A DNA stretch of 64,000 nt from a virus (taxonomy: Duplodnaviria > Caudoviricetes): positions 32,001-96,000 of the IMG/VR virus record IMGVR_UViG_3300037255_000025; one strand, given 5' to 3'. Position 1 is the stretch's first letter. Each line of letters begins with the position of its first letter. This document shows positions 2,403 through 58,104 of this stretch, one piece after another. The translations under genes and the position numbers were made by a program. The notes under the pieces were generated by a model. The model was not told where the DNA came from. It worked only from the letters and a program-made list of their open reading frames with translations, and ran no database searches.

Positions 2403-3572
2403 TCAGGAGAGCGCGAGGAAGGGGCTTCTCGGAACAGAAAGAGCCCCAGCGCTCTCCTGCCTCCGAAGGCGCTGTCCGCGCCGATCGATGTTGATTCCGG
2501 CGTTGACATCGCGATCCAGCACGAGCCCGCAATGCGGGCAGCGATGGACGCGCACGCCGAGGCCCTTCCGGACCACAGCGCCGCAGCCGGAGCATTCCTG
2601 GGAGGTACCGCGTGGATCCACGGCGGAAAACTCGCGGCCGGCGCACTCTGCCTTGCCGTCGGTGATCGTCGTGAACTGTGCCCACGCAGCGTCGAGAACT
2701 TGTTTCGCCAAACGCCCGCGCGCGAGGCCGATGACGTTGAGCTTCTCCACGGAGATCGAGTCGAAGTGATGCACCAGGTAGAGCGCCACCTTGTGGTGGA
2801 AGTCGAGCCGCACGCGACCCACGCGAGCGTGATGCTTGCGAAGCAGCACGACGGCCTTGCGGCGTCGCCGCGAGCCCTTCTTCCGCCGAGAGACGCGTTG
2901 CTGGGCAGCAGCGAGCCTCCGGTGAGCGGTCTCGTAGGGCCGCGGGTTGTCGATGCACTCGCCGGTCGAGAGCGCTGCGAAGGTCGTGATCCCCACGTCC
3001 ACGCCGACGCTCTTGCCCGTCGACGGCAGAGGCTTGGTCGGCACGTCCTGGCAGACGAACGCGATGTACCAGTGACCGTCGCCGTCGAGCGAAACGCTGG
3101 CCTGCTTGATCCGGCCCTGCATGGGTCGGTGGAGCTTGACCTTGACGTTGCCGATCCCCGTGAGCTTGACCCGCTTGCCGCCCGCGAGAAGCCGCACGCC
3201 GTTGTGGTTCGCGGCGTCCTTGAACGTGAACGTCGAGTAGCGGTCGCGGCCCTTGAAGCGAGGGAAACCGGGCTTCTCGCCGGCCTTGAACCGGCGAAAG
3301 AAGGCGCGCATGGCGCGGTCGAGCCGCGTGAGCGCGTCTTGCAAGAGGTGCGTGTGGATCGCGGCGTACTCGGGGCGGACCTCGCGGACCTCGCGCAGCT
3401 CGGCCATCTGATCGTAGGCCGAGAGCGTGACGCCTCGCTGGCGGTACGCCTTGATCCGCTCCTCGAGCGCCGCGTTGTAGAGCTCGCGCAGCCGGTAGGT
3501 CGTCTCACGCAGCGCAGCGTCCTGCGCTCGCGTCGGAGCGAGACGGTAGCGGTAGACACGAACCACGCGCAT
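2403..3572 (-). CDS. tnpB: TnpB RNA-guided endonuclease
   Basis: YRYRLAP HTH, GFPRFK, RuvC GVDVG / VEKL / DRDVNA, two CxxC; catalytic D-E-D intact. Confidence 0.95.
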   Translation of the reverse strand: MRVVRVYRYRLAPTRAQDAALRETTYRLRELYNAALEERIKAYRQRGVTLSAYDQMAELREVREVRPEYAAIHTHLLQDALTRLDRAMRAFFRRFKAGEKPGFPRFKGRDRYSTFTFKDAANHNGVRLLAGGKRVKLTGIGNVKVKLHRPMQGRIKQASVSLDGDGHWYIAFVCQDVPTKPLPSTGKSVGVDVGITTFAALSTGECIDNPRPYETAHRRLAAAQQRVSRRKKGSRRRRKAVVLLRKHHARVGRVRLDFHHKVALYLVHHFDSISVEKLNVIGLARGRLAKQVLDAAWAQFTTITDGKAECAGREFSAVDPRGTSQECSGCGAVVRKGLGVRVHRCPHCGLVLDRDVNAGINIDRRGQRLRRQESAGALSVPRSPFLALS

Positions 3573-3595
3573 AATGTACTTCGTTCGGACATCAC

Positions 3596-4003
3596 GTGCA
3601 AGCACTCCACCGCAACAACAACGCTGTTTTCCGGATCGTCTACCACTTGGTTCTCGTCTCCAAGTACCGGCGGGCCGTCCTCACCGGGCCGATGCTCGAT
3701 CGCTGCGCCGAGATCCTGCGGAGCCTGTGCGTCTCGTGGGAGGGCGAGCTCGTCGAGTGCAACGGCGAGGCGGACCACGTCCACATGCTCCTCGACATGC
3801 CGCCCAAGGTCCGCCCGAGCGACCTCACCAACAACGTCAAGACCGTCCTCTCGCGACGCCTCCGCTCCGAATTCCCGGCGCTCCGCGCGGCGTACCGCGG
3901 GAAGGCCGTCCTCTGGTCCCCGAGCTACTGCATCCTCTCCGCAGGAGGCGCGCCGATCGAGATCCTCAAGAGGTACGTCGAGAACCAGAAGAAACCGGAG
4001 TAG
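3596..4003 (+). CDS. tnpA: Y1 HUH transposase TnpA
   Basis: YHLVLVSKYRR, EADHVHML, LWSPSY, YVENQ. Confidence 0.95.
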   Translation: MQALHRNNNAVFRIVYHLVLVSKYRRAVLTGPMLDRCAEILRSLCVSWEGELVECNGEADHVHMLLDMPPKVRPSDLTNNVKTVLSRRLRSEFPALRAAYRGKAVLWSPSYCILSAGGAPIEILKRYVENQKKPE

Positions 4004-4992: not shown

Positions 4993-5056
4993 CGTGTTGT
5001 CTCCTTCCGCGTCCCTTACCTTGCCCCGAGCGGCTTCGCGGGCGTACAGTGCCTGG

Positions 5057-12610: not shown

Positions 12611-12639
12611 ACCCGCCCACGCGGGGGTAAGGGGCGGAC

Positions 12640-41020: not shown

Positions 41021-41659
41021 ATGAACGCTGAAACGGCAGAGATCGCGGCCCGGGTGGTCAACGAGGTCGTGGTCCAGTACGCGTTCCGCGTGCGCGCATG
41101 GTGCGACGAGCGGGACCTAGCGCAGCACGCGTGGGAGGTCGTGATGACGACGCTCGCCGCCGGGGGCCACGACCCCGCGAAGGGCCCGCTGGCCCCCTAC
41201 CTGGCGAACGCGCTGCGACGCCAGCTTGGCGAGCAGCTCGTCCGGCAACACGCGCCCGTCTCCGCCCGGCGTAGCGAGGTGTACAAGCTCCACCCGACCC
41301 GGGGCGAGTCGCTCGAGGGGTTCCAGGACTACGGTGAAAACCGACGATTGGACGGCCGGCAACAAGGCGGCAAACTGAAGCTCACGCCCGAAGCCACGCA
41401 GGAGCCCGTGCGCTGGGTCGACCAGATCCTGGCGGACCGCGAGTGGCACTACCGCGTGTTGACCCGGCTCACGGCCGTCGTAGGCGACGACGGCTTCGAT
41501 GGCCTGTTGGACCTGCTGCGCGAGGGGCCGCGGCGCACCGAGGGCGGAACGCCCGTAACGGGCCGGGCTCCCTGGGACCTCGAACAGTCCCGCGCGACCG
41601 CATGTATCCGGATCGCCCAAGACCCCGAGCTGCGTACGCTCGCGAAGGAGCGCCCGTGA
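41021..41659 (+). CDS. sigma70 region-2-like transcription factor
   Basis: DLAQ..W...HDPAKG.LAPYL...LR..L resembles regions 2.2-2.4 of group-3 sigmas; region 4 not evident. Confidence 0.6.
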   Translation: MNAETAEIAARVVNEVVVQYAFRVRAWCDERDLAQHAWEVVMTTLAAGGHDPAKGPLAPYLANALRRQLGEQLVRQHAPVSARRSEVYKLHPTRGESLEGFQDYGENRRLDGRQQGGKLKLTPEATQEPVRWVDQILADREWHYRVLTRLTAVVGDDGFDGLLDLLREGPRRTEGGTPVTGRAPWDLEQSRATACIRIAQDPELRTLAKERP

Positions 41660-41982
41660 CGACCAAGCTCGGAGACCCCCTGTCGCCCCGCCAGCAAGAC
41701 GCGCTCAAGGCCATCCAGCGCCACATCGCCGCCCGGGGCTACAGCCCGACGATCCGAGAGCTGGGCGAGGCGCTCAACGTCAGCCCTAGCGGGGCTGCGG
41801 CTCTACTCGAGGGCCTGAAACGCAAGGGGGCGATCCGCCGTCACCCCGACAGGGCGCGGACTATCGTGGTCGCCGTTCCTGTCGTCGGTACGCTCTTCTA
41901 CCTCGTCCTAGACGATACCGGCACGCCCCGGGTCTGCCGCGAAGGCGTCAAGGTTGGTCCAGACGGTCGGGTGCCCGCGTGA
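41656..41982 (+). CDS. LexA-like winged-helix DNA-binding protein (no peptidase domain)
   Basis: LSPRQ...GYSPTIREL...L.RKG.I.R....ARTI. Confidence 0.85.
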   Translation: MTTKLGDPLSPRQQDALKAIQRHIAARGYSPTIRELGEALNVSPSGAAALLEGLKRKGAIRRHPDRARTIVVAVPVVGTLFYLVLDDTGTPRVCREGVKVGPDGRVPA

Positions 41983-46616: not shown

Positions 46617-48398
46617 ATGACTATACACACGCGTTCGTCGTCGATCAAGCCCGATCCGCATCCCGCGCGGCCTTCGCCGGGCGTCGTCGTAAAGCCCGCG
46701 AACACGAACTGGGAGGTCGCCGGGGGCGAGACACTGCCCGTCGACACCATGGAACGGAAGCTCGGGCGGAACACTTGGGCGGTCTACCGGTGCCTCGCGA
46801 CCTGCCGCGACCCGCGCAACGGGCTCACGCGCATTTGGAACGAGACGATCGCCCGATACACGGGGATCCACCTCGACGTCGTCAAGGATGCGACCGCGAA
46901 GTTGAAGCGGTTGGGCCTCGTCGAGAGCGGCAAGGTCAAGGACGAGCCGGACCTCGGGGTCCTGGGCTTCCGCAACTTCCACCGCCCCGCCCGGGGCATC
47001 TGGCGGGCCCTCAACACGAAGGTCTACGTCCGGCGCATCCGGGGGTCGGCCGCCGTCGGAGCCGTCGGGGCCGACCGGGTCTGGATCCTTCCCGCCGAGG
47101 CAAAGCGCCGCATCACCGCCCCCGACCCGCGGGGGGGCCCGCGACCCGGGGCAGGTCGCCCCAAGGGGTCGGGCAACCTGCGTTACCCCCGCCCCGCCCA
47201 CGGGCCCGCGGGGTGGGGCATCCGGGCATGGATGTGGGACCAAGATCCGAGCTACGTCGCCCCGGTTGAGGTGCTCTCCGGGGTCGATTTCGTCGGTGAC
47301 CAGGATATCAAAAAGCCCCCGACGGGCGACGCCGAAAAGAATCAAAACCACCGTCGACGATCTGATCCGGATCTGGGATCTCCTCCGGATCTGGATCCGG
47401 ATCCGGATTCTTCTTCGAAGAATCCCGCGCGTGCGCGCGAGTTGGATTTTCAGATCCAGAGCCCGGACGGCACGCGGACCGGGTGCACGGATCACGACCC
47501 GATCCAAACCACCGCGACCCCTTCGACGTCGACCGCGGGTAAGATTCCGGGTCCGCCCCCGATGACGAACCCGACGCTCATGACTCCAACGCAGGACCCC
47601 GCCGGGGTTGCGCAGAACCGACCCGAGAACGCGTCGGGGGGTTCCAACCCAAGCGAGACCCTGTCGCGGGTCTCCGGAGCCGTTTACGACCCCGCTACGT
47701 CGGCCGACACCGTACCCACGATGACGCCCGAAGAAGAGCTGGCGTTGCCGATCGGGACGTTCTTGCGACTCGCGGGGTTGCCCCGTACGCCGTCGCTGAA
47801 CGATTTCTTGGTGGAAACTCCGCCCCCCGCGAGGCTCGCGCCGGAGACGACCCCCTACGAGCGTGCGCGGCTTTTGGTTGCGACCTACCTGAGCGGGCTC
47901 GAAAAGCGCTACCCGGACGAACCCATGCGGGACTTTCGCGGCAACCTCGCAAAGTCCAAGCACTACGACAACCTCGTGGCGGCGGCCGCGGCGATGATTC
48001 CGCTCAACGTGGCGCCGGCCGCGTGGGTCTTGTATTCGTTCGATGTCTGGGAGCGCGGCGGCGGTATGCGGACCGGTGTGGTCCCGCCGCCGCGATTCGT
48101 TTTCGACCCGAAGCGCTTGAGCCGTCAGGGCGTCGCGATGTTCAACAAGGTCGAGCTGGACTACCGGGCCGTCCCCAACAAGATCACCGACGAGTTCCGG
48201 GAACTGACGCGCGCGTACAACCGGGCGATGCGGTTGGCGAGCGAGGCGCCGTCGTTGGCGGCCGCGCGTGTCGTGGTCGCGACGACGTTGGCGGAGAGGG
48301 GCTGGGAAACCCTGTTCAAAGCCGCGACCAAGGCGACACAGGTCGCGAGGGCGGCGCTCGCCGCGCGGATCGCTTCGGGCGAGATGGTTTGGGGCTGA
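46617..48398 (+). CDS. putative replication initiator
   Basis: N-terminal HTH-like (ETIARYTG...LKRLGLVE), internal repeat tract, directly upstream of DnaB. Confidence 0.6.
   Translation: MTIHTRSSSIKPDPHPARPSPGVVVKPANTNWEVAGGETLPVDTMERKLGRNTWAVYRCLATCRDPRNGLTRIWNETIARYTGIHLDVVKDATAKLKRLGLVESGKVKDEPDLGVLGFRNFHRPARGIWRALNTKVYVRRIRGSAAVGAVGADRVWILPAEAKRRITAPDPRGGPRPGAGRPKGSGNLRYPRPAHGPAGWGIRAWMWDQDPSYVAPVEVLSGVDFVGDQDIKKPPTGDAEKNQNHRRRSDPDLGSPPDLDPDPDSSSKNPARARELDFQIQSPDGTRTGCTDHDPIQTTATPSTSTAGKIPGPPPMTNPTLMTPTQDPAGVAQNRPENASGGSNPSETLSRVSGAVYDPATSADTVPTMTPEEELALPIGTFLRLAGLPRTPSLNDFLVETPPPARLAPETTPYERARLLVATYLSGLEKRYPDEPMRDFRGNLAKSKHYDNLVAAAAAMIPLNVAPAAWVLYSFDVWERGGGMRTGVVPPPRFVFDPKRLSRQGVAMFNKVELDYRAVPNKITDEFRELTRAYNRAMRLASEAPSLAAARVVVATTLAERGWETLFKAATKATQVARAALAARIASGEMVWG
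47359..47424. repeat. GGATC(C/T) repeat tract, candidate origin iterons
   Basis: Seven GATC in 45 bp plus GATTCTT/AAGAATC inverted repeat. Confidence 0.6.
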
Positions 48399-48412
48399 TA
48401 GGAGCGCGAACG

Positions 48413-49795
48413 ATGGCGACTGACCGGAGCTACTACTGGCTGGATCTAAGGTTCGAGCGGCGTGTCGTCTTTTTGGCGTGTACGTCGCCGAAGTTTTGGG
48501 CTCGGCTGGGCCACGAGATCGAAGCCGAGAACCTGAACGCCGAAGAGGCTCGGTGGGCCATGCGGGCCGCCCGGATGATCGTGGCCGAGACCCACCGCCC
48601 GCCCGACTCATTTGTTCTCGTGCTCCAGCGGCTCAGGACGCTCATGGACGACGGCAAGGTCAGCTACGCCGAGGTCGAGGCCGTGGGTGACTACTTCATC
48701 GCGGGCGCGGAGGACTCGATCGCGTACGACGCCGTCGTGGACCAGCTCGCGCCCGTGTTGGCGAAGCGACTGCGCAACAAGGTTGTCTTGGCGGTCATGC
48801 AGGAGGCAGCACAACCCGACGGCGAGGAGGGTCCGTTCCCGGAGGCGCGTAAGTTGGTCGAGCGGGCGGCGGCGGTGGGCCGGGACGCCGAGGTGACCGA
48901 CGTCGGGGTTGTGCTCGGTGAGGGTAGCTACGACGCGATCAAGGCTGTGCGCGGCTTGGTTCGGCTTGGCACCGGCATCGAGGATTTGGACGCGCAGCTC
49001 AACGGGGGACCGCGGCGAGGAGGGTTCACGATCTGGATGGGCTCGACGGGGGCGGGAAAGTCGCTCAGCCTCACGCACACGACGAGCCACGCGTTGCGCC
49101 ACCAAAAGGTCGTCGCGTTCGCGACGCTGGAGCTGCCACTGGACCAGCAGTTCTCGCGACTCAAAGCCAACCTCACGGGTTTCCAAATCGACGACGTCCA
49201 GGACGACCCCGACTGCACCCGCGGTTGGTTCGCGGTGAACGGCGGCGGGCTCGGGCGCGCGTACCTCCAGGCGTTCCCTTCGCACGCCACGACGGTGGCG
49301 GATCTACGAAAGTGGGTGGACGAGGTCGAGTTGCGTGAGGGGGCATGCCGGGGTCTCGCGGAGGGGACGCGACATTCGATCGACCTGTTGGTCATCGACT
49401 ACGGGGACCTTTTGGCCGTGCCGTCTTCAGTGGGTAAAGACGCGGACCACGGTTACTCGGTGGGCAAGCACGTGTTCGGCGAGTTGCGCGACTACGCCGA
49501 GGGCCAGAAGCAGCCCGGCGACAAGGGGCACCCCGGGGGGCCCATCTGGGTGTCGACCGCGTGTGCCGCGACGCGTGGAACCGCGTCAGCCAAGCGCAAG
49601 TACCTGTCGTCGGACGACATCGCGGACTCGATCCACAAGTCGCGACGCGCGACCCTGATGATCTCGATCAACCCACGCGACGACGGCACGGAGTATTGGG
49701 TCGCGAAGAACACGCACGGCAAGGACCTGTTTCCGGTGGGGCCGATCTTTGGCGAGCGCGAGAAGGGCCGCATCGCGCCGCTGTACAGCGTGTGA
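48413..49795 (+). CDS. DnaB-like replicative helicase
   Basis: TGIEDLD, GSTGAGKS, TLE, VIDYGD. Confidence 0.88.
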   Translation: MATDRSYYWLDLRFERRVVFLACTSPKFWARLGHEIEAENLNAEEARWAMRAARMIVAETHRPPDSFVLVLQRLRTLMDDGKVSYAEVEAVGDYFIAGAEDSIAYDAVVDQLAPVLAKRLRNKVVLAVMQEAAQPDGEEGPFPEARKLVERAAAVGRDAEVTDVGVVLGEGSYDAIKAVRGLVRLGTGIEDLDAQLNGGPRRGGFTIWMGSTGAGKSLSLTHTTSHALRHQKVVAFATLELPLDQQFSRLKANLTGFQIDDVQDDPDCTRGWFAVNGGGLGRAYLQAFPSHATTVADLRKWVDEVELREGACRGLAEGTRHSIDLLVIDYGDLLAVPSSVGKDADHGYSVGKHVFGELRDYAEGQKQPGDKGHPGGPIWVSTACAATRGTASAKRKYLSSDDIADSIHKSRRATLMISINPRDDGTEYWVAKNTHGKDLFPVGPIFGEREKGRIAPLYSV

Positions 49796-50253
49796 AGTCG
49801 AAACACGAGCGCGCGTCGACTTGGTGCAGTCTCCGGACGCTCGGGGCCGCGCGGCGCTGCGCCATCATCTACCGTGGTGGGGGCTACTGCGCGTGGTGCC
49901 GGGTTCCGCTCACGCAGGACACGGCCCAGATCGACCACGTCGTGCCCCGGCGTCACGGCGGATCGAACGACCCGGCGAACCTGGTCGCGGCGTGTTCGGA
50001 ATGCAACGCGCGTCGCCCCGACGTGACGGGCGACCTCGCGCAGCTTTGCGAGCCGTTGGACACCGCTGCGGGCTTCCAGTTGGCGCTCTGCTGGTACCCA
50101 TGGTTGCCCGCCCGCTACGCTGACAAGGAAGCGCGCAAGCGCAACGCTCGGGACCAACAGCGCGAGCGCCAACGGGCCGCGCGACTCGAGGGCCTCGGTG
50201 GCGACGCGTTCCCGTTTGGCGCCGCGGAGCCTGAAGCCGCGGCGGCGGAGTAG
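49792..50253 (+). CDS. HNH endonuclease
   Basis: CAWC..DHVVP..GGSN...NLV.AC..CN. Confidence 0.88.
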   Translation: MKSKHERASTWCSLRTLGAARRCAIIYRGGGYCAWCRVPLTQDTAQIDHVVPRRHGGSNDPANLVAACSECNARRPDVTGDLAQLCEPLDTAAGFQLALCWYPWLPARYADKEARKRNARDQQRERQRAARLEGLGGDAFPFGAAEPEAAAAE

Positions 50254-50307
50254 CGCCGTGGGGTTGGTCGTCGCAAAGCCGGCCCGCTCGGGGTAAGGGT
50301 CGCGTCG

Positions 50308-51333
50308 ATGACGACCCCTCGCGCGCTCCTGTACACGTTCGCGGACTACCGACGCGACATGAACCTCGTCCTCGTCGAGCCCTCGTGGGGGGACTACGAA
50401 GTGCACTGCGACGCCAAAGGGATCCCGCCGCGTAAGCCCGACGGCGACATCAACAACTGCGCGCTCGTTCACGGGGAATCGGCGCAGGATTGCCAGGTGT
50501 GCCCGGGCCGGTGCCCCGACGCCGTCCGGCTGTTCCAACGGGCCGCGGGGGCGTCGGTCGTGACCGCGGCGGAACTGGAGGCGGAGCCCGCCGCGGAGCG
50601 GGCGGCGGAGCCGACCGAGCCCGCGGCCGCGGAGGACGCGACGCCGCTGGCGCACGCGTTCGCACACTCGAGCGCCAGCGTGGAGCACTACAGCCCCTTC
50701 GGCCTTGTCGGCGCGGCTGCCCGGGTCTTTGGTGGGACGATCGACCTGGACCCTGCGAGCTGCGAGGCCGCGAACGAGTACATCGAGGCCACGACGTATT
50801 ACGACGCCGCGACCAACGGTCTGAAGCAGGCCTGGGCGGGCAGTGTGTGGCTAAACCCGCCCGGGGGTCTGTGCGACGAGGACGGGCGACCCTGTTACCC
50901 CCGGACGCGCAAGCGCGAGGGCTGCACCGTGACGGGCGCATGTGGTCTCGAGCCCGGGCACCAACATAAGGGCGTGACCAGCTCGGCCAAGCACTGGTGG
51001 GCGAAGCTCGCGCGTGAGTGGTCCGCGGGGCACCTCACGCAGGCGGTGTTCCTGGGGTTCTCGCTCGAGCAGCTCGGGTCCACGCAGTCCGACGTCGGTC
51101 CGGGCTTGCTGACGCCGCTCGACTGCATCCTGTGCCTGCCGCGCAAGCGCGTGCGGTACCTGCATCAGGACCCCGACGGCGCGCTGGTCTCGGGCGACGC
51201 CCCGCCGCACAGCTCGTTCCTGGCCTATCTCGGCCCCAACACGAAGGCGTTCACGGCGGCGTTCGTGCCGTTCGGCCGCGTGTTGGTCGGGCACCACGAC
51301 CTGCGATCGGTGTGGTGGGACGAGACGCCATGA
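50308..51333 (+). CDS. phage DNA N6-adenine methyltransferase-like
   Basis: EHYSP, IDLDPAS, NGL..W, WLNPPG. Confidence 0.8.
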   Translation: MTTPRALLYTFADYRRDMNLVLVEPSWGDYEVHCDAKGIPPRKPDGDINNCALVHGESAQDCQVCPGRCPDAVRLFQRAAGASVVTAAELEAEPAAERAAEPTEPAAAEDATPLAHAFAHSSASVEHYSPFGLVGAAARVFGGTIDLDPASCEAANEYIEATTYYDAATNGLKQAWAGSVWLNPPGGLCDEDGRPCYPRTRKREGCTVTGACGLEPGHQHKGVTSSAKHWWAKLAREWSAGHLTQAVFLGFSLEQLGSTQSDVGPGLLTPLDCILCLPRKRVRYLHQDPDGALVSGDAPPHSSFLAYLGPNTKAFTAAFVPFGRVLVGHHDLRSVWWDETP

Positions 51334-51965: not shown

Positions 51966-52212
51966 GGTCGGCGACTACGTGCGCGATGTGACCTTGGATC
52001 GGAAGACAGGTAAGGCGCTTCGGACTGGCTGGATGCGGGCCATATTACGCGTGGGAGCGCGGACATTCTCAACCGAATGCGCGACGTACCTCCTGGACGG
52101 GCGTCGGTCCCCGTTGAGGGTGTACGGGCAAGGGGCGACAGTGCACGTTGCCCGTCGGGTGCCCAACCACGAGGTCGCGGCCGCGATGCTTGAGCACGAG
52201 GCAGCTCGATGA
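51958..52212 (+). CDS. hypothetical protein
   Basis: Overlaps both neighbours. Confidence 0.5.
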   Translation: MVEVGDYVRDVTLDRKTGKALRTGWMRAILRVGARTFSTECATYLLDGRRSPLRVYGQGATVHVARRVPNHEVAAAMLEHEAAR

Positions 52213-53126
52213 GTACCCGATCGGGCGACCGTGCGGTGCTCGAGGCGGTCGCGGGGAAGCGCCCTGGGCCCAGCGGGTGGGTCCGGGGCAACTGCCCGTC
52301 GTGCGAGACCCGCGTGGGCAAGGTCGACCGGCGGCAGTGCCTCGGGCTCAACGTCTACACCGCGCGCTGGGTTTGTCATCGGTGTGGTGACGGTGGCCGT
52401 ATCGGCCGCATGCCCGACGAGTGGAGTGACCTGGAAGCCCCCGCGCCCCGCGCCGCCTCGGGCCCGAAGCTGCCCACGATGGACCCGCCCGACGGGTTTT
52501 TTGAGCTGTTCAACGGCGACGGTGCTCGTTCGCGTTCGCTCGACCCCGCGCGGCACTACCTCACGCAGGTCCGGGGGTTGTCGCCGGAGGTCCTGCGTGA
52601 GGCCCGCGTGGGCGCGTGCGTCGCCGGGACCTTTGCCGGCCGGGTGGTCGTGCCGGTGTTCGGGGTCGAGCCCGACGAGGACACGGGGGAGCTTCCCTGG
52701 GTTGGCTACAGCACGCGACCCTGGGTCAAGAACTACACGGGAATGGGCTACCGGTACCCGCGGGGCATGCCGTTGGCGACGCTGCTGTACAACGCCGCAG
52801 TGCTCCAGGTCGAGACCGACGAGCCCGTGCTGGTCGTCGAGGGCGTGTTCGATGCCCACGCGTTGTGGCCTGACGCGGTCGCGGCCCTCGGCGGGACCAA
52901 GGAGGGGCACCGGGAGCAGTTCATGTCGGCGCGCCGACCCGTCGTGTTGCTACCAGACGGCGACGCTTGGCATAAAAGTTGGCTTTTCTCAATGCAGCTC
53001 CGCTTCGAGGGGCAGCGCGCGGGGCTGGTGAAGCTCCCGCCCAAGCGGGACCCCGATGAGGTCCCGGTCGACGTGTTGCGCGCGGCCGCGCGCGAGTCAC
53101 TTGATCGAGACTGGGTTGCGGTGTGA
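52209..53126 (+). CDS. DNA primase (Zn finger + TOPRIM)
   Basis: CPSC..CHRC, VEGVFDA, PDGD, DPD. Confidence 0.9.
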   Translation: MSTRSGDRAVLEAVAGKRPGPSGWVRGNCPSCETRVGKVDRRQCLGLNVYTARWVCHRCGDGGRIGRMPDEWSDLEAPAPRAASGPKLPTMDPPDGFFELFNGDGARSRSLDPARHYLTQVRGLSPEVLREARVGACVAGTFAGRVVVPVFGVEPDEDTGELPWVGYSTRPWVKNYTGMGYRYPRGMPLATLLYNAAVLQVETDEPVLVVEGVFDAHALWPDAVAALGGTKEGHREQFMSARRPVVLLPDGDAWHKSWLFSMQLRFEGQRAGLVKLPPKRDPDEVPVDVLRAAARESLDRDWVAV

Positions 53127-53295
53127 TCGATCGGGATCTCAACGCTGCCATCAACTTGAAAGATTTGGCCGGGAGTTCCCCGGTGTCAGCCTGTCGCCCT
53201 GGAGGCTCTGGTGCTGCTCTTACGAGCGGTACGAAACCTCTGGTTGGGCAGGAACCGAACCAGGTATCAGCTTGCTGAACCTACCTCGGAGGACG
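53117..53295 (+). pseudogene. 3' remnant of a second tnpB with omegaRNA-like scaffold
   Basis: Frame reads CGVIDRDLNAAINLKDLAGSSPVSAC...QE; nested hairpins; lower GC. Confidence 0.8.
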
Positions 53296-53341
53296 TAAGG
53301 GTCGCGGCGGGACGAAACGAACGAAAGGGTCGAGGTACGAG

Positions 53342-54331
53342 ATGCGGACGATTACGTGGACGGGTACGGCGGTGATCTTGGGTGTGGAGCGGCCCGTGGC
53401 GTTCCAGGGGCTTGGTTTGGCGCCCGGCGTGGCGGGAGGTACGTCGCCGTTGATGCTGGCCATCGGTGGGCTGTCGTCCGAAGAGGGTGCGGCGATCGTC
53501 GCCGCACTCGAGAAGATCCAGCCCGCGGAAGGGACGAAGACCTACAACTTCCGCGTCGAGATCCCTGGCGCCAAGCTGGACCAGACGCCCGTCATCCCCG
53601 GCGACGCACACAGGTCGTGGTGGGACGAGACGCCGAAGCCCGCCCCGGCTGCGGCGAAGCCGGCCGCGCCCGCTGCGACGACTCCGCCGGTCAAGACCGC
53701 GGTCCCCGCGACGGCCGCGGCGCAGCAGGCTGCACCCAAGCCGGCACCCGCGGCCGTCGCCCAGGCGCGCCCCGCCTCGACGCTAGCGGCCGTCGCTACG
53801 GCTGCGCCTCTCCCTGCCGCGAGGCCCGCGGCGGCTCCTGCGCCCGTGACAGTAAACCGGCCTGCGCCTGCTGCGAAGCCTGCCGCGGCGAAGCCTGCAC
53901 CCGCGGCAGCGGCTCCGCCGGCCGCGACTCGCCCGAAGCCCGCCGCGGCCCCCGCGCCGGTCGCGGCAATCGACCCGGCCGGACCCGACGAGGACGAAGA
54001 GGAGGCGCCCGAGGAACCCGATGGGACTGAGCCCGCGGCGGCGTCGGTTGACGACGATCCGGTGGGCTTGTCCTCGACGCCGATCCCGCCAGAGCTATTG
54101 GCGGCGAACGCAATGCTCCGGGCGGTGGTGGTCTGGGTCATTCAGCACATGATCGACACGACGGGTGAGCACCCCACGGAGGACCAGATCATCGCGGGCA
54201 TCGAGGCCCTCCGGGGCAAGGTCCCGCTGGTGACGCGGACGGTTGCCGCGGACCTCGCGCGCCGTGTCCCGCTGGTTCTTCAGGTCATCGGCAACCTGGG
54301 CCCGGCGCCCCGCGCGGACGCCGCGCAGTAA
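53342..54331 (+). CDS. Ala/Pro-rich protein with acidic patch
   Basis: GAGGT SD; low-complexity linker between two small domains. Confidence 0.7.
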   Translation: MRTITWTGTAVILGVERPVAFQGLGLAPGVAGGTSPLMLAIGGLSSEEGAAIVAALEKIQPAEGTKTYNFRVEIPGAKLDQTPVIPGDAHRSWWDETPKPAPAAAKPAAPAATTPPVKTAVPATAAAQQAAPKPAPAAVAQARPASTLAAVATAAPLPAARPAAAPAPVTVNRPAPAAKPAAAKPAPAAAAPPAATRPKPAAAPAPVAAIDPAGPDEDEEEAPEEPDGTEPAAASVDDDPVGLSSTPIPPELLAANAMLRAVVVWVIQHMIDTTGEHPTEDQIIAGIEALRGKVPLVTRTVAADLARRVPLVLQVIGNLGPAPRADAAQ

Positions 54332-54336
54332 CGCCC

Positions 54337-57300
54337 ATGCGCGACCTCCCGCTGTATTCTGCCTTGCCGGTCGCGGCCATCGAGGCGGAGCCGTCGCTCG
54401 ACCCCGACGACCGGTGCACCCGGTGCGAGCTGTCGGGGCTCCGCCGGGCGACGGATCCGGAGACCGGGGAGGAGCGGGTTGAGCCTCGCGATGCGAAGCG
54501 GCCCGGCCGCGTTTGTTTGGGTTCGGACGGGGGCAAGAACCCCCGTCCGGGCGGTGTCTTGGTCGTGGTCGATACGGTGACGCAGGACGACGACCGGCCC
54601 CACCCGGCCGGTCGCGTGTTGTCTGGCGTTGCTGGCCACATGGTCCGCCCGTTGGTGTCGAGGTGGTATCCCGGGCCCGTGACGTACGCGGCGGCGACGC
54701 GGTGCCGGCCCTTTCACAAGCTCGCGGTCGAGCACGTGGAGGCCTGTCGCGGCTACATGGCCCGGACGCTGGAGGATGTCCGGCCGGAGCGCATTATCGC
54801 GATGGGGTCGCTCGCGGCGCGCTCGATCCTGGGTCGGTCGGTCCAGCCGAACAACGTCCGCACCGGGTACGCGTACTTGCTCGCCGGGCGCTACCGCGAC
54901 CGACCCATCCCGGTCTACTTCGTCGGAGCGCCCAAGGGCGCGGTAGACAACCGGTTCCTGAAGACCCTGCTTGAACAGGACATCGAGTACGCGTTGACGC
55001 GGCCGCCGCCGCCGTTGCCACCCCTCGACGCGGTCGTGCGCGTGGTCGAGACCGCGGAGGACGCCGAGGCCGCGGTGGCGGAGATGAGCGCCGCGCCCTG
55101 GTGCTCGGTAGACGTGGAGAGCGCGGGGCAGTTGTTTGACCCGTCGTTCCGGCTTCTGTGCGTGACCGCGACCCCGGAGCGAGAAGACGAAGCCTTGTCG
55201 GAGGATACGTGGACGTGGGACGAGGCCGCGTTGGCGAACCCGGCGACGCGCGCGCCCCTGGCGCGTTACCTTGCGGACCCTCGCGCACGAAAGTGCGGCG
55301 CGAATGTCAAATTCGACCGGTCGGCGCTTGTGACGAATGGGTTCGCGGTCGCGGGGGTCGACGGCGACGTGCGGCTGTGGCGCAAGTTGCTCGAGGCCGA
55401 GGCGCCCGCCGACCTCGCGACGATGGTTGAGTTGGTCGGGATGGGCGGCATGAAGGACGAGCAGAAGTTGGCCGAGGCCCCGGCGGTCGACCGGATCACG
55501 TTCGGCGTCCACACGGAGCGCCGGTTGGCGAAGGCGAAGGAAGCCGACAAGAAGGTTGGCAAGCTGTCCGCCAAGGCCGCGGACGGGCTCGCGGCGCTCG
55601 CCGACCTCGACGCGCGTCTCCCGCACATCGCCGCGCTCGTTCGGGACGCGGGCGTTGAGTCGGGCGCTTGGGCCAAGGCGGTCGTACCGGACGACACGCT
55701 GCTCGCGTACAACGGTCGAGACGGTGTGGGGACGCGGCGTCTGTTGGCGCGGCTTCCGCGTGACCTAGCGATCAATCCACAGATCGACCGTATCCGGCGG
55801 CTCGTCGTAGACCGTGCCGCGCGCGCTGTGGCTCGGCTTGAGGAGTGGGGGGTCCCGGTCGACATGAACGCGCTCCGAGCCTTCGACGCGCACTGCACGC
55901 TATCGTTGCGCGTGACGCGTGAGAGGCTCGATGCGGAGGTGGGCGTGGATCTCAACCCCGGGTCGCCGCAGCAGCTAGCCGAGTTGTTGTATCGAAAGCT
56001 TGGGTTCAAGCCGACCAAGCTCACCGCGGGCGGACAGCCATCGGTCGACGAAGAGGTCTTGGAGAAGCTGCGCGGTAAGCACCCGGTGGTGGACCTCGTG
56101 CTGGATCACCGAAAGTACGCAGGACTGCGCTCTAAGTACGCAGGAGGCATGATCCCGCATGTCCGACCTGACGGCCGCGTTCATTGCTCGATTCTACTCG
56201 ATGGAGCAGCGTCGGGTCGTGCGTCTATCAAGGATCCCCCGCTACAGCAGATCCCTAGCAATAAGCGCGACCCTTTGTACGGCAAGATGGCGCGCGACGT
56301 CTTCGCGCCTGTGTTTGGTTTCCTTTTCCTACAGGCCGACTACAAGCAAGCAGAGTTCCGGGTGGCCGCGATGTTGTCTCAGGATCCTGTCATGATGGCT
56401 GACATCGCGGCGGGGTTGGACCCACATCTGGCGACGGCGAAGTTCATCTCGCGCGTGGCTTGGGGTATCTCGCCCGACGAGGTCACGGACGAGCACCGAT
56501 CCCAGACAAAGTCTGTTGTCTTCGGCGTGTTGTACGGGAAAACAGCGGGGTCTCTTGCCGCGATGTTCGGTTGTTCGAGAGAACAGGCGCAGAAGATCGT
56601 GGATGCCGTAATGGGCCGCTACAAGGTCCTGGCCCGGTGGATCAAGACGAACCTCCGAGAGGCTCAGAATACTGGGTATGTCTGGACTCAGTGGGCAGGA
56701 GAGCCCGCGCGTCGTCGGCCGCTGTTCGACCTTGGCCTGCGCGGCGATCAGAACGAGGGGCGGCGAGTTCACGCGGCTAACGCCGCCACCAACTGCCTCG
56801 ACGCCGAGACGGAGGCGCTTACGCGTCGCGGTTGGGTCCGCGGGTTTGATCTCCGTCCCGACGACGTCATCTTGACCAAAAACGCTGCGACCGGCGCGTT
56901 GGAATGGGAGACCATGACCGACCTTCGCCTCTTTCCCGACTATGAGGGCCCCGTTGTTGAATTCAAGTCGAGGAGCTTCAGCGCGGTTTCCACCCCCAAC
57001 CACCGATGGCTCGTTGAGACCAAGTCGCGCCAGCCTGGGCGTCGAACGTGCGAGCGGACTACTCGTACGCTCTCTCCGTGGGGAGATGACCGCATCCACC
57101 GGACGGGCGAGTACCGCCCCGACGTCGACAGCGTCTTGACGCCGGACGAAGCGGAGCTTCTTGGGTGGTTCGTCACGGACGGTTCGATCAGGAAGGCCCA
57201 TACGGTCGCTGGAAAGCAGAAGAACCGCAGGTATTCCACGACGAGCGCGAGGGCGCTCATCCACCAGAGCGGGACCGCGAACGCGGCTAACTGCTCCCGC

Positions 57301-58104
57301 ATCGACGCGCTTCTAGCTCGCGCGGCTCCCAGCGAAACTACTCGTAGGTCGCTGAAGAATGGGATGGTCGTGTGGAACCTCGGTCGTCGCCTATCGACGC
57401 TTCTTATTGGGCTATGCCCAACAAGGACTCTCATGTTGGGGGCCATGCTCCGCCTCAATCGGCCCGCGCTTGACCGGCTGCACGAGGCAATGGTCCTTGG
57501 CGACCGGCATAAGCGGGGCATCTGCACGGGTCGGCGCGAGCAGGCCGAGGCGTTTCAGATCCTCTGTACACTCACCGGCGCGCACGCGTCCGTTACGTAC
57601 CGAGACATGAGCCGATACAAGCTAAAGAAGTACCCAAGCATGGGGAACATCCCCGTGACCGAGGGGTGCTGGTTGTCGGACACGTTGAACCGGAAGACTG
57701 TCCAGGTCACTGCGGGCCAGCGCCGCGAGGTCGTGGCGCGCGTCCCGGTGTGGTGCCCTGTCGTGCCTAACACGTTCTTCGTCGCGCGCCGGAGTGACCA
57801 CGTGTTCATCACGGGAAACTCGCCCATTCAAGGAGGGGCGAACGAGTTCCAGCTCGCGAGCCTCGTAGAGGCCGTCGAGTGGATCGAGGTTGAGGGCATC
57901 GAGCGGGACGTGAAGCTCCTGCTGCCCGTTCACGATTCGCTCCTGTTCGAGGTAAGAGCCGATATGGTGAACGACGTTGCCAGGAAAGTGCGTCAGATCA
58001 TGACGAGCCACGATAGCGGTGGCGTCGCGATGGATGTTGACTGTGAAGTTGGGCCCGCGTGGGGCTCGCTCTCGAAGTGGAAGGACCCCGATGTTGTCGC
58101 GTGA
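54337..58104 (+). CDS. polA: Family A DNA polymerase with N-terminal UDG-like domain and intein
   Basis: CTRC/RCRP/AC; exo DVE, NVKFD, YNGRD; pol ADYKQAE, K..VFGVLYG, VHDS. Confidence 0.93.
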   Translation: MRDLPLYSALPVAAIEAEPSLDPDDRCTRCELSGLRRATDPETGEERVEPRDAKRPGRVCLGSDGGKNPRPGGVLVVVDTVTQDDDRPHPAGRVLSGVAGHMVRPLVSRWYPGPVTYAAATRCRPFHKLAVEHVEACRGYMARTLEDVRPERIIAMGSLAARSILGRSVQPNNVRTGYAYLLAGRYRDRPIPVYFVGAPKGAVDNRFLKTLLEQDIEYALTRPPPPLPPLDAVVRVVETAEDAEAAVAEMSAAPWCSVDVESAGQLFDPSFRLLCVTATPEREDEALSEDTWTWDEAALANPATRAPLARYLADPRARKCGANVKFDRSALVTNGFAVAGVDGDVRLWRKLLEAEAPADLATMVELVGMGGMKDEQKLAEAPAVDRITFGVHTERRLAKAKEADKKVGKLSAKAADGLAALADLDARLPHIAALVRDAGVESGAWAKAVVPDDTLLAYNGRDGVGTRRLLARLPRDLAINPQIDRIRRLVVDRAARAVARLEEWGVPVDMNALRAFDAHCTLSLRVTRERLDAEVGVDLNPGSPQQLAELLYRKLGFKPTKLTAGGQPSVDEEVLEKLRGKHPVVDLVLDHRKYAGLRSKYAGGMIPHVRPDGRVHCSILLDGAASGRASIKDPPLQQIPSNKRDPLYGKMARDVFAPVFGFLFLQADYKQAEFRVAAMLSQDPVMMADIAAGLDPHLATAKFISRVAWGISPDEVTDEHRSQTKSVVFGVLYGKTAGSLAAMFGCSREQAQKIVDAVMGRYKVLARWIKTNLREAQNTGYVWTQWAGEPARRRPLFDLGLRGDQNEGRRVHAANAATNCLDAETEALTRRGWVRGFDLRPDDVILTKNAATGALEWETMTDLRLFPDYEGPVVEFKSRSFSAVSTPNHRWLVETKSRQPGRRTCERTTRTLSPWGDDRIHRTGEYRPDVDSVLTPDEAELLGWFVTDGSIRKAHTVAGKQKNRRYSTTSARALIHQSGTANAANCSRIDALLARAAPSETTRRSLKNGMVVWNLGRRLSTLLIGLCPTRTLMLGAMLRLNRPALDRLHEAMVLGDRHKRGICTGRREQAEAFQILCTLTGAHASVTYRDMSRYKLKKYPSMGNIPVTEGCWLSDTLNRKTVQVTAGQRREVVARVPVWCPVVPNTFFVARRSDHVFITGNSPIQGGANEFQLASLVEAVEWIEVEGIERDVKLLLPVHDSLLFEVRADMVNDVARKVRQIMTSHDSGGVAMDVDCEVGPAWGSLSKWKDPDVVA
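56794..57819 (+). mobile_element. intein (342 aa) with LAGLIDADG-like domain
   Basis: CLDAET...TPNHRW...LLGWFVTDG...VWCP...ITGN/S. Confidence 0.9.

Follow-up and report, generated by a model that had tools for sequence, protein, structure and literature searches.

A 64,000-nucleotide (nt) stretch of a tailed phage genome, hereafter the window (bases 32001-96000 of the 169,748-bp IMG/VR virus record IMGVR_UViG_3300037255_000025; the phage genome is 67.5% G+C), contains between its DNA primase gene and the gene that follows a 5'-truncated relic of a tnpB-omegaRNA cassette. The relic comprises the last 51 codons of tnpB and the right end of the cassette. It carries a complete omegaRNA-like scaffold and runs directly into a copy-specific flank equivalent to a guide, an assignment we regard as secure. 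Our favored explanation, which we consider probable, is that the relic is a leftover with useful ends, and that its RNA activity, if any, is incidental. The parts now under constraint may be its first bases, which hold the primase stop codon, and its last 19, which look like the upstream half of a gene-start signal.

The identity and limits of the relic follow from comparison with its relatives in the same genome. By blastn, positions 53123-53301 match the 3' ends of three intact tnpB copies with 86-95% DNA identity, so that the parent family sought by the original prediction (an earlier reading of the same DNA made without database searches) is found in the phage itself. In a multiple alignment, homology extends precisely from GTGATCG (53123) to GGAGGACGT (53296), beyond which the flanks of all copies differ, giving a relic of 174 bases. 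The element proposed earlier at 53117-53315 is therefore real, with proper limits at 53123-53296; its boundary, previously left uncertain, is mapped at the right end to about 2 nt (53294-53296), with 1-2 nt of uncertainty remaining. Where about 52 codons of a TnpB tail had been proposed, 51 are found, and the encoded peptide is 94% identical over 47 residues (E-value 3e-29) to residues 357-403 of the intact 407-residue TnpB of the same phage. As also proposed, the remnant is distinct from the other TnpB of the window, an IS605-type protein (2403-3605, minus strand), with which it has only the 12-residue RuvC-III motif in common. Upstream of 53123 there is no match to the left part of any cassette, leaving the relic without a left end. 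A search of INPHARED phages returned one match, in an uncultured phage of 485 kb: 135 nt of a tnpB 3' end at 73% identity, of no value for synteny.

The scaffold was assessed with a covariance model, R1, built from 40 scaffolds of relatives with the relic excluded. The consensus of those 40 shows compensatory changes in 17 of 18 pairs, and a model-based realignment of 45 sequences shows them in 18 of 19 consensus pairs, including all five pairs of helix 1; helices 2 and 3 covary too, and helix 4 varies among the phage's own copies with pairing maintained. Against R1 the relic scores 76.6 bits (E-value 5e-24) across model positions 1-149 of 149 with zero non-canonical pairs, as compared with 76.2, 76.0 and 71.2 bits for the scaffolds on intact genes. 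Beyond these four, searching the whole genome with R1 brings in just two hits, at 29.8 bits to a more distant solo copy and at 15.1 bits to a truncated relic. The minimum free energy fold of 53159-53296 (-58.9 kcal/mol, z -2.4) has the same architecture and contains all four hairpins recognized by eye in the original prediction, which had rightly taken them to be intact. Of the models searched, only the purpose-built one recognizes the relic: Rfam gives no match at gathering score across the window and none at E-values up to 10 in 52900-53500, RAGATH-18-type IS607 reRNAs (right-end element RNAs) included. When the alignment was extended 150 nt upstream, no conserved helix appeared before the first hairpin, and the left limit of the relic, 45 nt upstream of that hairpin, thus spares the conserved structure. 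Through helices 1-4 the relic has the same sequence as two intact copies. In helix 5 the inner hairpin differs from the GCUUC...GAAGC of the intact copies, yet pairs, and this variant is common only to two other relics. Such a mosaic of identical helices and a variant terminal hairpin suggests, from the alignment, exchange between copies.

The right end of the relic coincides with a motif that recurs throughout the phage. The genome contains 61 copies of the hexamer GTAAGG, 24 on the plus and 37 on the minus strand, mostly 6-25 nt before a start codon, usually after a G-run and with NCC next. Among 38 GGTAAGG sites, A stands at -16 in 29 and at -15 in 25, against a background A frequency of about 0.16. 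A phage-wide bipartite motif emerges, AA(C), a G+C-rich spacer of about 14 nt and (G)GGTAAGG(G/A)NCC, with the start codon 6-25 nt on; examples in the window lie at 12627, 43553, 45848, 50293, 53295 and 63105 (plus) and at 5019, 8987, 9721 and 30757 (minus), and the AAC is often overlapped by the stop codon of the upstream gene. Several copies have a separate GGAGG between box and start codon, from which the box is more than a Shine-Dalgarno sequence; the motif may be a promoter, a ribosome-binding signal or both. In the case of the relic, GAAC-N14-GTAAGGGTCGCG is present as originally described: AAC begins on the final base of the tnpB stop codon, and with its AAC-N14 the right end falls exactly into register with the phage-wide AA-N15-GTAAGG. 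Two intact copies and two other relics show this register as well. The last 19 nt of the relic (AAC, the 14-nt spacer and GT) are thus probably the upstream half of the signal of the downstream gene, which fits the alternative offered in the original prediction that the end of an insertion sequence (IS) was kept because it supplies an upstream promoter element.

A degenerate tandem of the box is also visible at this site, with GTAAGGGTCGCGG at 53295-53307 followed 28 nt later by GAAAGGGTCGAGG (53323-53335; 11 of 13 positions identical). The spacing of the second box to the ATG (53342) is the usual one, and this box may be the gene's original box, or the trace of an earlier insertion or recombination. 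An open reading frame (ORF) at 41021-41656, considered as a sigma-like factor for the motif, matches no Pfam family; its neighbor at 41443-41982 carries a LexA-type DNA-binding domain.

Table 1. Positions of the relic, its parts, the flanking genes and the other relics of the family (window coordinates unless marked as genome).
Feature	Position	Strand	Basis or remark
5'-truncated tnpB-omegaRNA cassette relic, last 51 codons and right end	53123..53296	+	blastn, alignment
tnpB remnant frame, RuvC-III motif DRDLNAAINL to natural stop	53123..53278	+	51 codons 53123-53275, stop 53276-53278
Complete omegaRNA-like scaffold, ~138 nt	53159..53296	+	covariance model R1
Helix 1, hairpin with conserved AGUUC loop (CCGGG/CCCGG in the original prediction)	53168..53184	+	fold and covariation
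Helices 2 and 3 (GCCUGU/GCAGG, CUGGAGG/CCUCUGG), enclosing helix 4	53190..53252	+	fold and covariation
Helix 4, variable hairpin GUGCUGCUC/GAGCGGUAC	53209-53234	+	fold
Helix 5, outer stem CCGA/UCGG and inner hairpin 53262-53282 (AGGT-TCAGC/GCTGA-ACCT in the original prediction)	53255..53289	+	fold; stem covaries
AAC-N14-GTAAGG, cassette right end and flank gene-start box	53278..53300	+	AAC 53278-53280, spacer 53281-53294, box from 53295
Guide-equivalent flank AAGGGTCGCGGCGGGACGAA, 20 nt past right end	53297..53316	+	copies diverge after ACGT; first base +/-1-2 nt
DnaB-like helicase	48023-49795
HNH endonuclease	49561-50253
DNA methyltransferase	50308-51333
DNA primase gene	52209..53126	+	phrog_47, E-value 1.6e-14
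Downstream gene, Pro/Ala-rich protein	53342..54331	+	GAGG-N6-ATG precedes start
Family-A DNA polymerase	54337-58104
96-nt relic	genome 149667-149760	-	locus L126
24-nt relic	genome 8317-8340	-	locus L122
Mini-element, left flank box and first 94 nt of tnpB joined to last 30 nt of right end	genome 12420-12556	-	locus L122

Comparison of the primase junction with that of relatives points to how the relic may have arisen. The spacer from the primase to the next gene is 215 nt and holds the tnpB remnant, and the primase stop codon TGA (53124-53126) lies within the relic in a frame different from that of tnpB. Primase homologues of 40-47% identity from IMG/VR and JGI metagenomes terminate no more than 2-3 residues away from this point, and the next gene begins just 1-60 nt further on; these compact, unoccupied junctions have no tnpB remnant, and one of them carries a GTAAGG box. 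We infer that a transposase-less cassette of the IS607 lineage formerly separated the primase gene from the next gene, inserted at the gene-start box of the latter, and that a later deletion took its left end together with about 1,070 nt of tnpB, from the primase end through codon 356. This deletion would have joined the 3' end of the primase gene to the tnpB codon that precedes the RuvC-III motif, with the result that the relic supplies the primase stop codon. The relic would be young, or would have been homogenized by recombination. The GTG of the remnant frame overlaps the primase stop (GTGTGA), a layout that could permit translational coupling and production of a small C-terminal TnpB peptide.

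The parent family is well represented in the phage, which has six TnpB ORFs. Three belong to the family of the relic, near genome positions 113.7 kb and 159.8 kb and at 168.9 kb, the last running into the contig end; two are IS605-type with an adjacent Y1 transposase, one of them the window copy; and one is the more distant solo copy. The IS605-type element of the window, unrelated to the relic family, pairs its 400-residue TnpB with a divergent Y1 tnpA (3626-3988, plus), and a second such pair lies near genome 19.6-21.1 kb. Both ends of the contig (genome 1-478 and 168749-169748) fall within a tnpB copy and share an overlap of 210 bases that has two mismatches, which implies that the assembly broke in a tnpB repeat; a circular or permuted genome is possible, and relic-family copies number three or four. 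TnpBs of this family align over residues 5-370 with ISDra2 TnpB (8bf8, 8h1j; E-value 9e-64) and retain the RuvC motifs DVGIK, IEDLN and DRDLNAA. Of the TnpB or nuclease-dead TldR for which the original prediction proposed a search, intact TnpBs are thus present in the genome; no nuclease-dead homologue was seen among the six TnpB ORFs, and the family keeps the D-E-D of RuvC.

Relatives of the family place its lineage. Seventeen loci were collected from other viral contigs and 80 from bacteria and archaea, mostly Chloroflexota. A conserved 3' region is present in 42 of the relatives, always ending in RGAACGG and diverging past GAACGG, and in both relatives checked (L041 and L048) a tnpA with MerR helix-turn-helix and resolvase domains lies directly upstream and ends one base before tnpB. 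By these two features, the GG end and the tnpA, the cassette lineage is IS607-like, and the phage copies have no such transposase, there being no match to the serine recombinase family PF00239 in the 169,748-bp genome at E-values up to 0.1. The original assignment to IS607-type elements inserting at GG is accordingly right as to lineage, while the phage copies themselves end in ACGT (GT), as against the ACGG (GG) of the 42 relatives. Left sides of the phage copies are conserved in pairs only, with no left end common to all, and each intact copy begins 9-12 nt past a GTAAGG-like box on its left.

Any RNA from the relic could work only in trans, since the nuclease gene is deleted down to 51 codons. 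The primase transcription unit carries the scaffold at its 3' end, just where a native tnpB transcript would have it, and 5'-end processing is all that such an RNA is known to need from TnpB (PMC10278001). Neither around the relic nor between it and the primase is a sigma-70 promoter predicted, and a terminator search of 52000-54500 returned zero sites, with no GC-rich hairpin followed by a U-tract. The absence of a predicted terminator, the sufficiency of 5' processing and the presence of near-cognate intact TnpBs in the genome make loading in trans plausible. The scaffold would probably be bound and 5'-processed by TnpB from three or four sibling copies, and the resulting ribonucleoprotein would target the unoccupied form of the primase junction; such targeting is most likely an incidental property of a leftover, not a selected function.

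The flank in the guide position was compared with the phage genome and with other viruses. At the seven right ends in the genome ...GGAGRACGT is common, with divergence beyond. Counted from the T of the box, the guide of the relic matches 11 nt at window 50294-50304 (behind GGGG) and 13 nt at genome 136209 (behind AGGG). The first corresponds to the recurrence of GTAAGGGTCGCG at 50293-50304 behind GGG reported in the original prediction, which proposed a guide seeded by the phage's own promoter motif. That repeat exists; the feature is generic to gene-start boxes, as 20 of the 1,830 box pairs agree over at least 10 following bases and 3 pairs over at least 13, so that the matches of the relic are unremarkable. 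They were therefore rejected as a special sign of self-targeting or regulation. An exact search of IMG/VR with the guide 20-mer returned zero hits; two hits to the 17-mer were in unrelated contexts and were judged chance. The empty-site relatives that the earlier reading had hoped to compare take the form of compact junctions in IMG/VR and JGI metagenomes, all next to primases of 40-47% identity, too distant for guide matching, and no empty or occupied junction that matches the guide was found among them.

Other relics of the family serve as a control for selection. Three further right-end remnants occur in the genome, keeping 96, 30 and 24 nt of the right end, and the scaffold is kept by one of the four relics only, that at 53123-53296. 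The 96-nt relic (~149.7 kb), considered as a second stand-alone scaffold, was rejected: it has neither helix 1 nor the 5' strand of helix 2 or helix 3, cannot form helices 1-3, and scores 15 bits against R1. Its helix 4 is compensated, and it is 88.5% identical to the main relic over their shared part. Because this non-folding relic is about as undecayed, lack of decay is no evidence of selection on the RNA. The mini-element, fused at a GGGCTT microhomology, keeps both ends and has lost the omegaRNA scaffold. The original statement that a deletion spared the RNA module is thus true as description and carries no sign of selection.

Several observations weigh against reading the relic as a leftover with useful ends. 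At the intact copy near genome 114 kb and at the 96-nt relic, the flanks share only GT and have no GTAAGG; with two right ends not followed by the box, only some right ends can belong to a gene-start signal. At the relic junction GGAC stands in place of the usual G-run, which makes the rebuilt motif imperfect, and the box lies 47 nt before the ATG, with a separate GAGG 6 nt before it. Identity of helices 1-4 to those of intact copies is also expected under purifying selection, and a search for close phage relatives that might date the deletion found none.

The best-surviving alternative, which we think unlikely, is that the relic is a selected guide: its omegaRNA, with a sibling TnpB, would cut rival or co-infecting phages that have the unoccupied junction (a G-run, then TAAGGGTCGCGG...), thereby driving copying of the relic allele or excluding competitors as a protein-less, non-autonomous homing unit. 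The completeness of the scaffold, its score and its identity in helices 1-4 to the scaffolds of two intact TnpBs all agree with this, as do the intact catalytic motifs of the TnpBs and the native-like transcript position with processing at the 5' end only. The local junction has no G-run and would escape self-cutting at the relic site, and protein-less elements with omegaRNAs that would have to be used in trans have been described (bioRxiv 10.1101/2023.03.14.532601). Against it stand the retention of the scaffold in one relic of four, with non-folding relics equally undecayed, and the lack of informative IMG/VR guide hits or of a relative with a matching empty site among primases of 40-47% identity. 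The related proposition that the relic is a working stand-alone guide, such that one nuclease family serves separate guides (three or four in cis plus an orphan), we hold to be doubtful.

RNA-guided regulation is far less credible. Here the guide, which begins with the common box TAAGGG, would direct TnpB to the phage's own gene-start motifs, to be bound uncut and their transcription tuned in the manner of TldR. The 11-nt and 13-nt matches behind GGGG and AGGG are what it would call for, but prefixes of this length are common among the 61 boxes, and the family TnpBs, unlike TldRs, retain their RuvC catalytic residues. It is equally improbable that the relic is an RNA 3'-end element that stabilizes or terminates the primase mRNA independently of TnpB; although its fold is strong and directly follows the primase stop, that fold is simply the one of the omegaRNA family, no terminator-like site or U-tract is present, and primase genes of relatives do without such an element. 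An assembly artefact joining the primase to mid-tnpB through mis-joined repeats hardly deserves belief: tnpB repeats did disturb the metagenome assembly at both contig ends, but no k-mer is shared at the left junction, where unique sequence meets repeat, the primase has the length of its homologues, and the relic has its own variant bases and a terminal hairpin absent from every intact copy.

The relic belongs to known kinds of elements: it is an IS relic, a nuclease-less omegaRNA, and an IS end placed in the expression signal of a neighbor. Like the omegaRNA (reRNA) of ISDra2-like TnpBs, the relic RNA would cover the last ~40-50 codons of tnpB to the right end and take its guide from the flank, and it has a multi-helix scaffold, here strongly covarying. 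ISDra2 itself differs in being an IS605 element with a Y1 transposase, whereas relatives of the phage clade have a serine recombinase and end in GG, and no Rfam family matches the relic. In IS607 elements such as CboIStron, a GG core dinucleotide and a TGGG transposon-adjacent motif (TAM) have been shown experimentally; this TAM lies directly at the left end, and the empty site, once rejoined, is cleaved by TnpB (bioRxiv 10.1101/2023.11.20.567912). The gene-start boxes of the phage likewise stand behind G-runs, and its family shares with IS607 elements the features of tnpA and GG end found in the relatives. The phage copies depart from them in being embedded in a gene-start motif, in their GT end and in having no common left end or serine recombinase gene, and the relic has its right end only. 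Palindrome-associated transposable elements (PATEs) also have an omegaRNA without its own nuclease gene and would need TnpB in trans (Meers et al., bioRxiv 10.1101/2023.03.14.532601). PATEs keep both ends and can be mobilized by TnpA, which the relic with its single end cannot match; the mini-element resembles them in having both ends, with its scaffold lost. The guide RNAs of TldRs differ in that their partner proteins are nuclease-dead.

Known parallels are IS ends from which adjacent genes draw promoter elements and homing endonuclease genes that stand free between the genes of a phage. The relic is like the former in that the terminus of a mobile element would give the upstream half of a neighbor's expression signal, and unlike them in that the signal is the phage-specific AA-N15-GTAAGG motif. 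The intact parent cassette would, like the latter, be a selfish nuclease cassette set between essential replication genes without disruption, the difference being that the phage nuclease is RNA-guided. What is uncommon is the setting, with transposase-less TnpB cassettes in register with a gene-start motif of the phage. Their place between essential genes in that register suggests that phages can harbor RNA-guided nucleases in much the way they harbor homing endonuclease genes.

The relic is also a natural deletion that parted a guide-RNA module from its nuclease while intact nucleases remained in the genome. If its RNA is made and loaded, it offers a test of the use of omegaRNA in trans in nature and of a guide alone as a selfish or competitive element. 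Should it prove a working stand-alone guide, the orphan would home without any gene, or exclude rivals with an unoccupied primase junction, a step from 'one transposon, one guide' to a nuclease with detached guide modules. Failing production or loading of the RNA, the relic is no more than an ordinary IS leftover that marks past cassette turnover, and still an example of the end of a mobile element in the expression signal of its neighbor. That sibling TnpBs use the relic omegaRNA in trans is plausible.

The relic is flanked by a co-directional replication module on the window (Table 1). The protein encoded directly downstream of it (53342-54331) has no family match, and its N-terminus resembles that of the post-primase gene of relatives L016 and L119. 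Next comes the family-A DNA polymerase, matched by its Pfam model in two stretches separated by an insertion of about 350 residues that begins Cys-Leu-Asp and is intein-like in look, with no Pfam intein match. The N-terminus of the polymerase carries a domain resembling uracil-DNA glycosylase.

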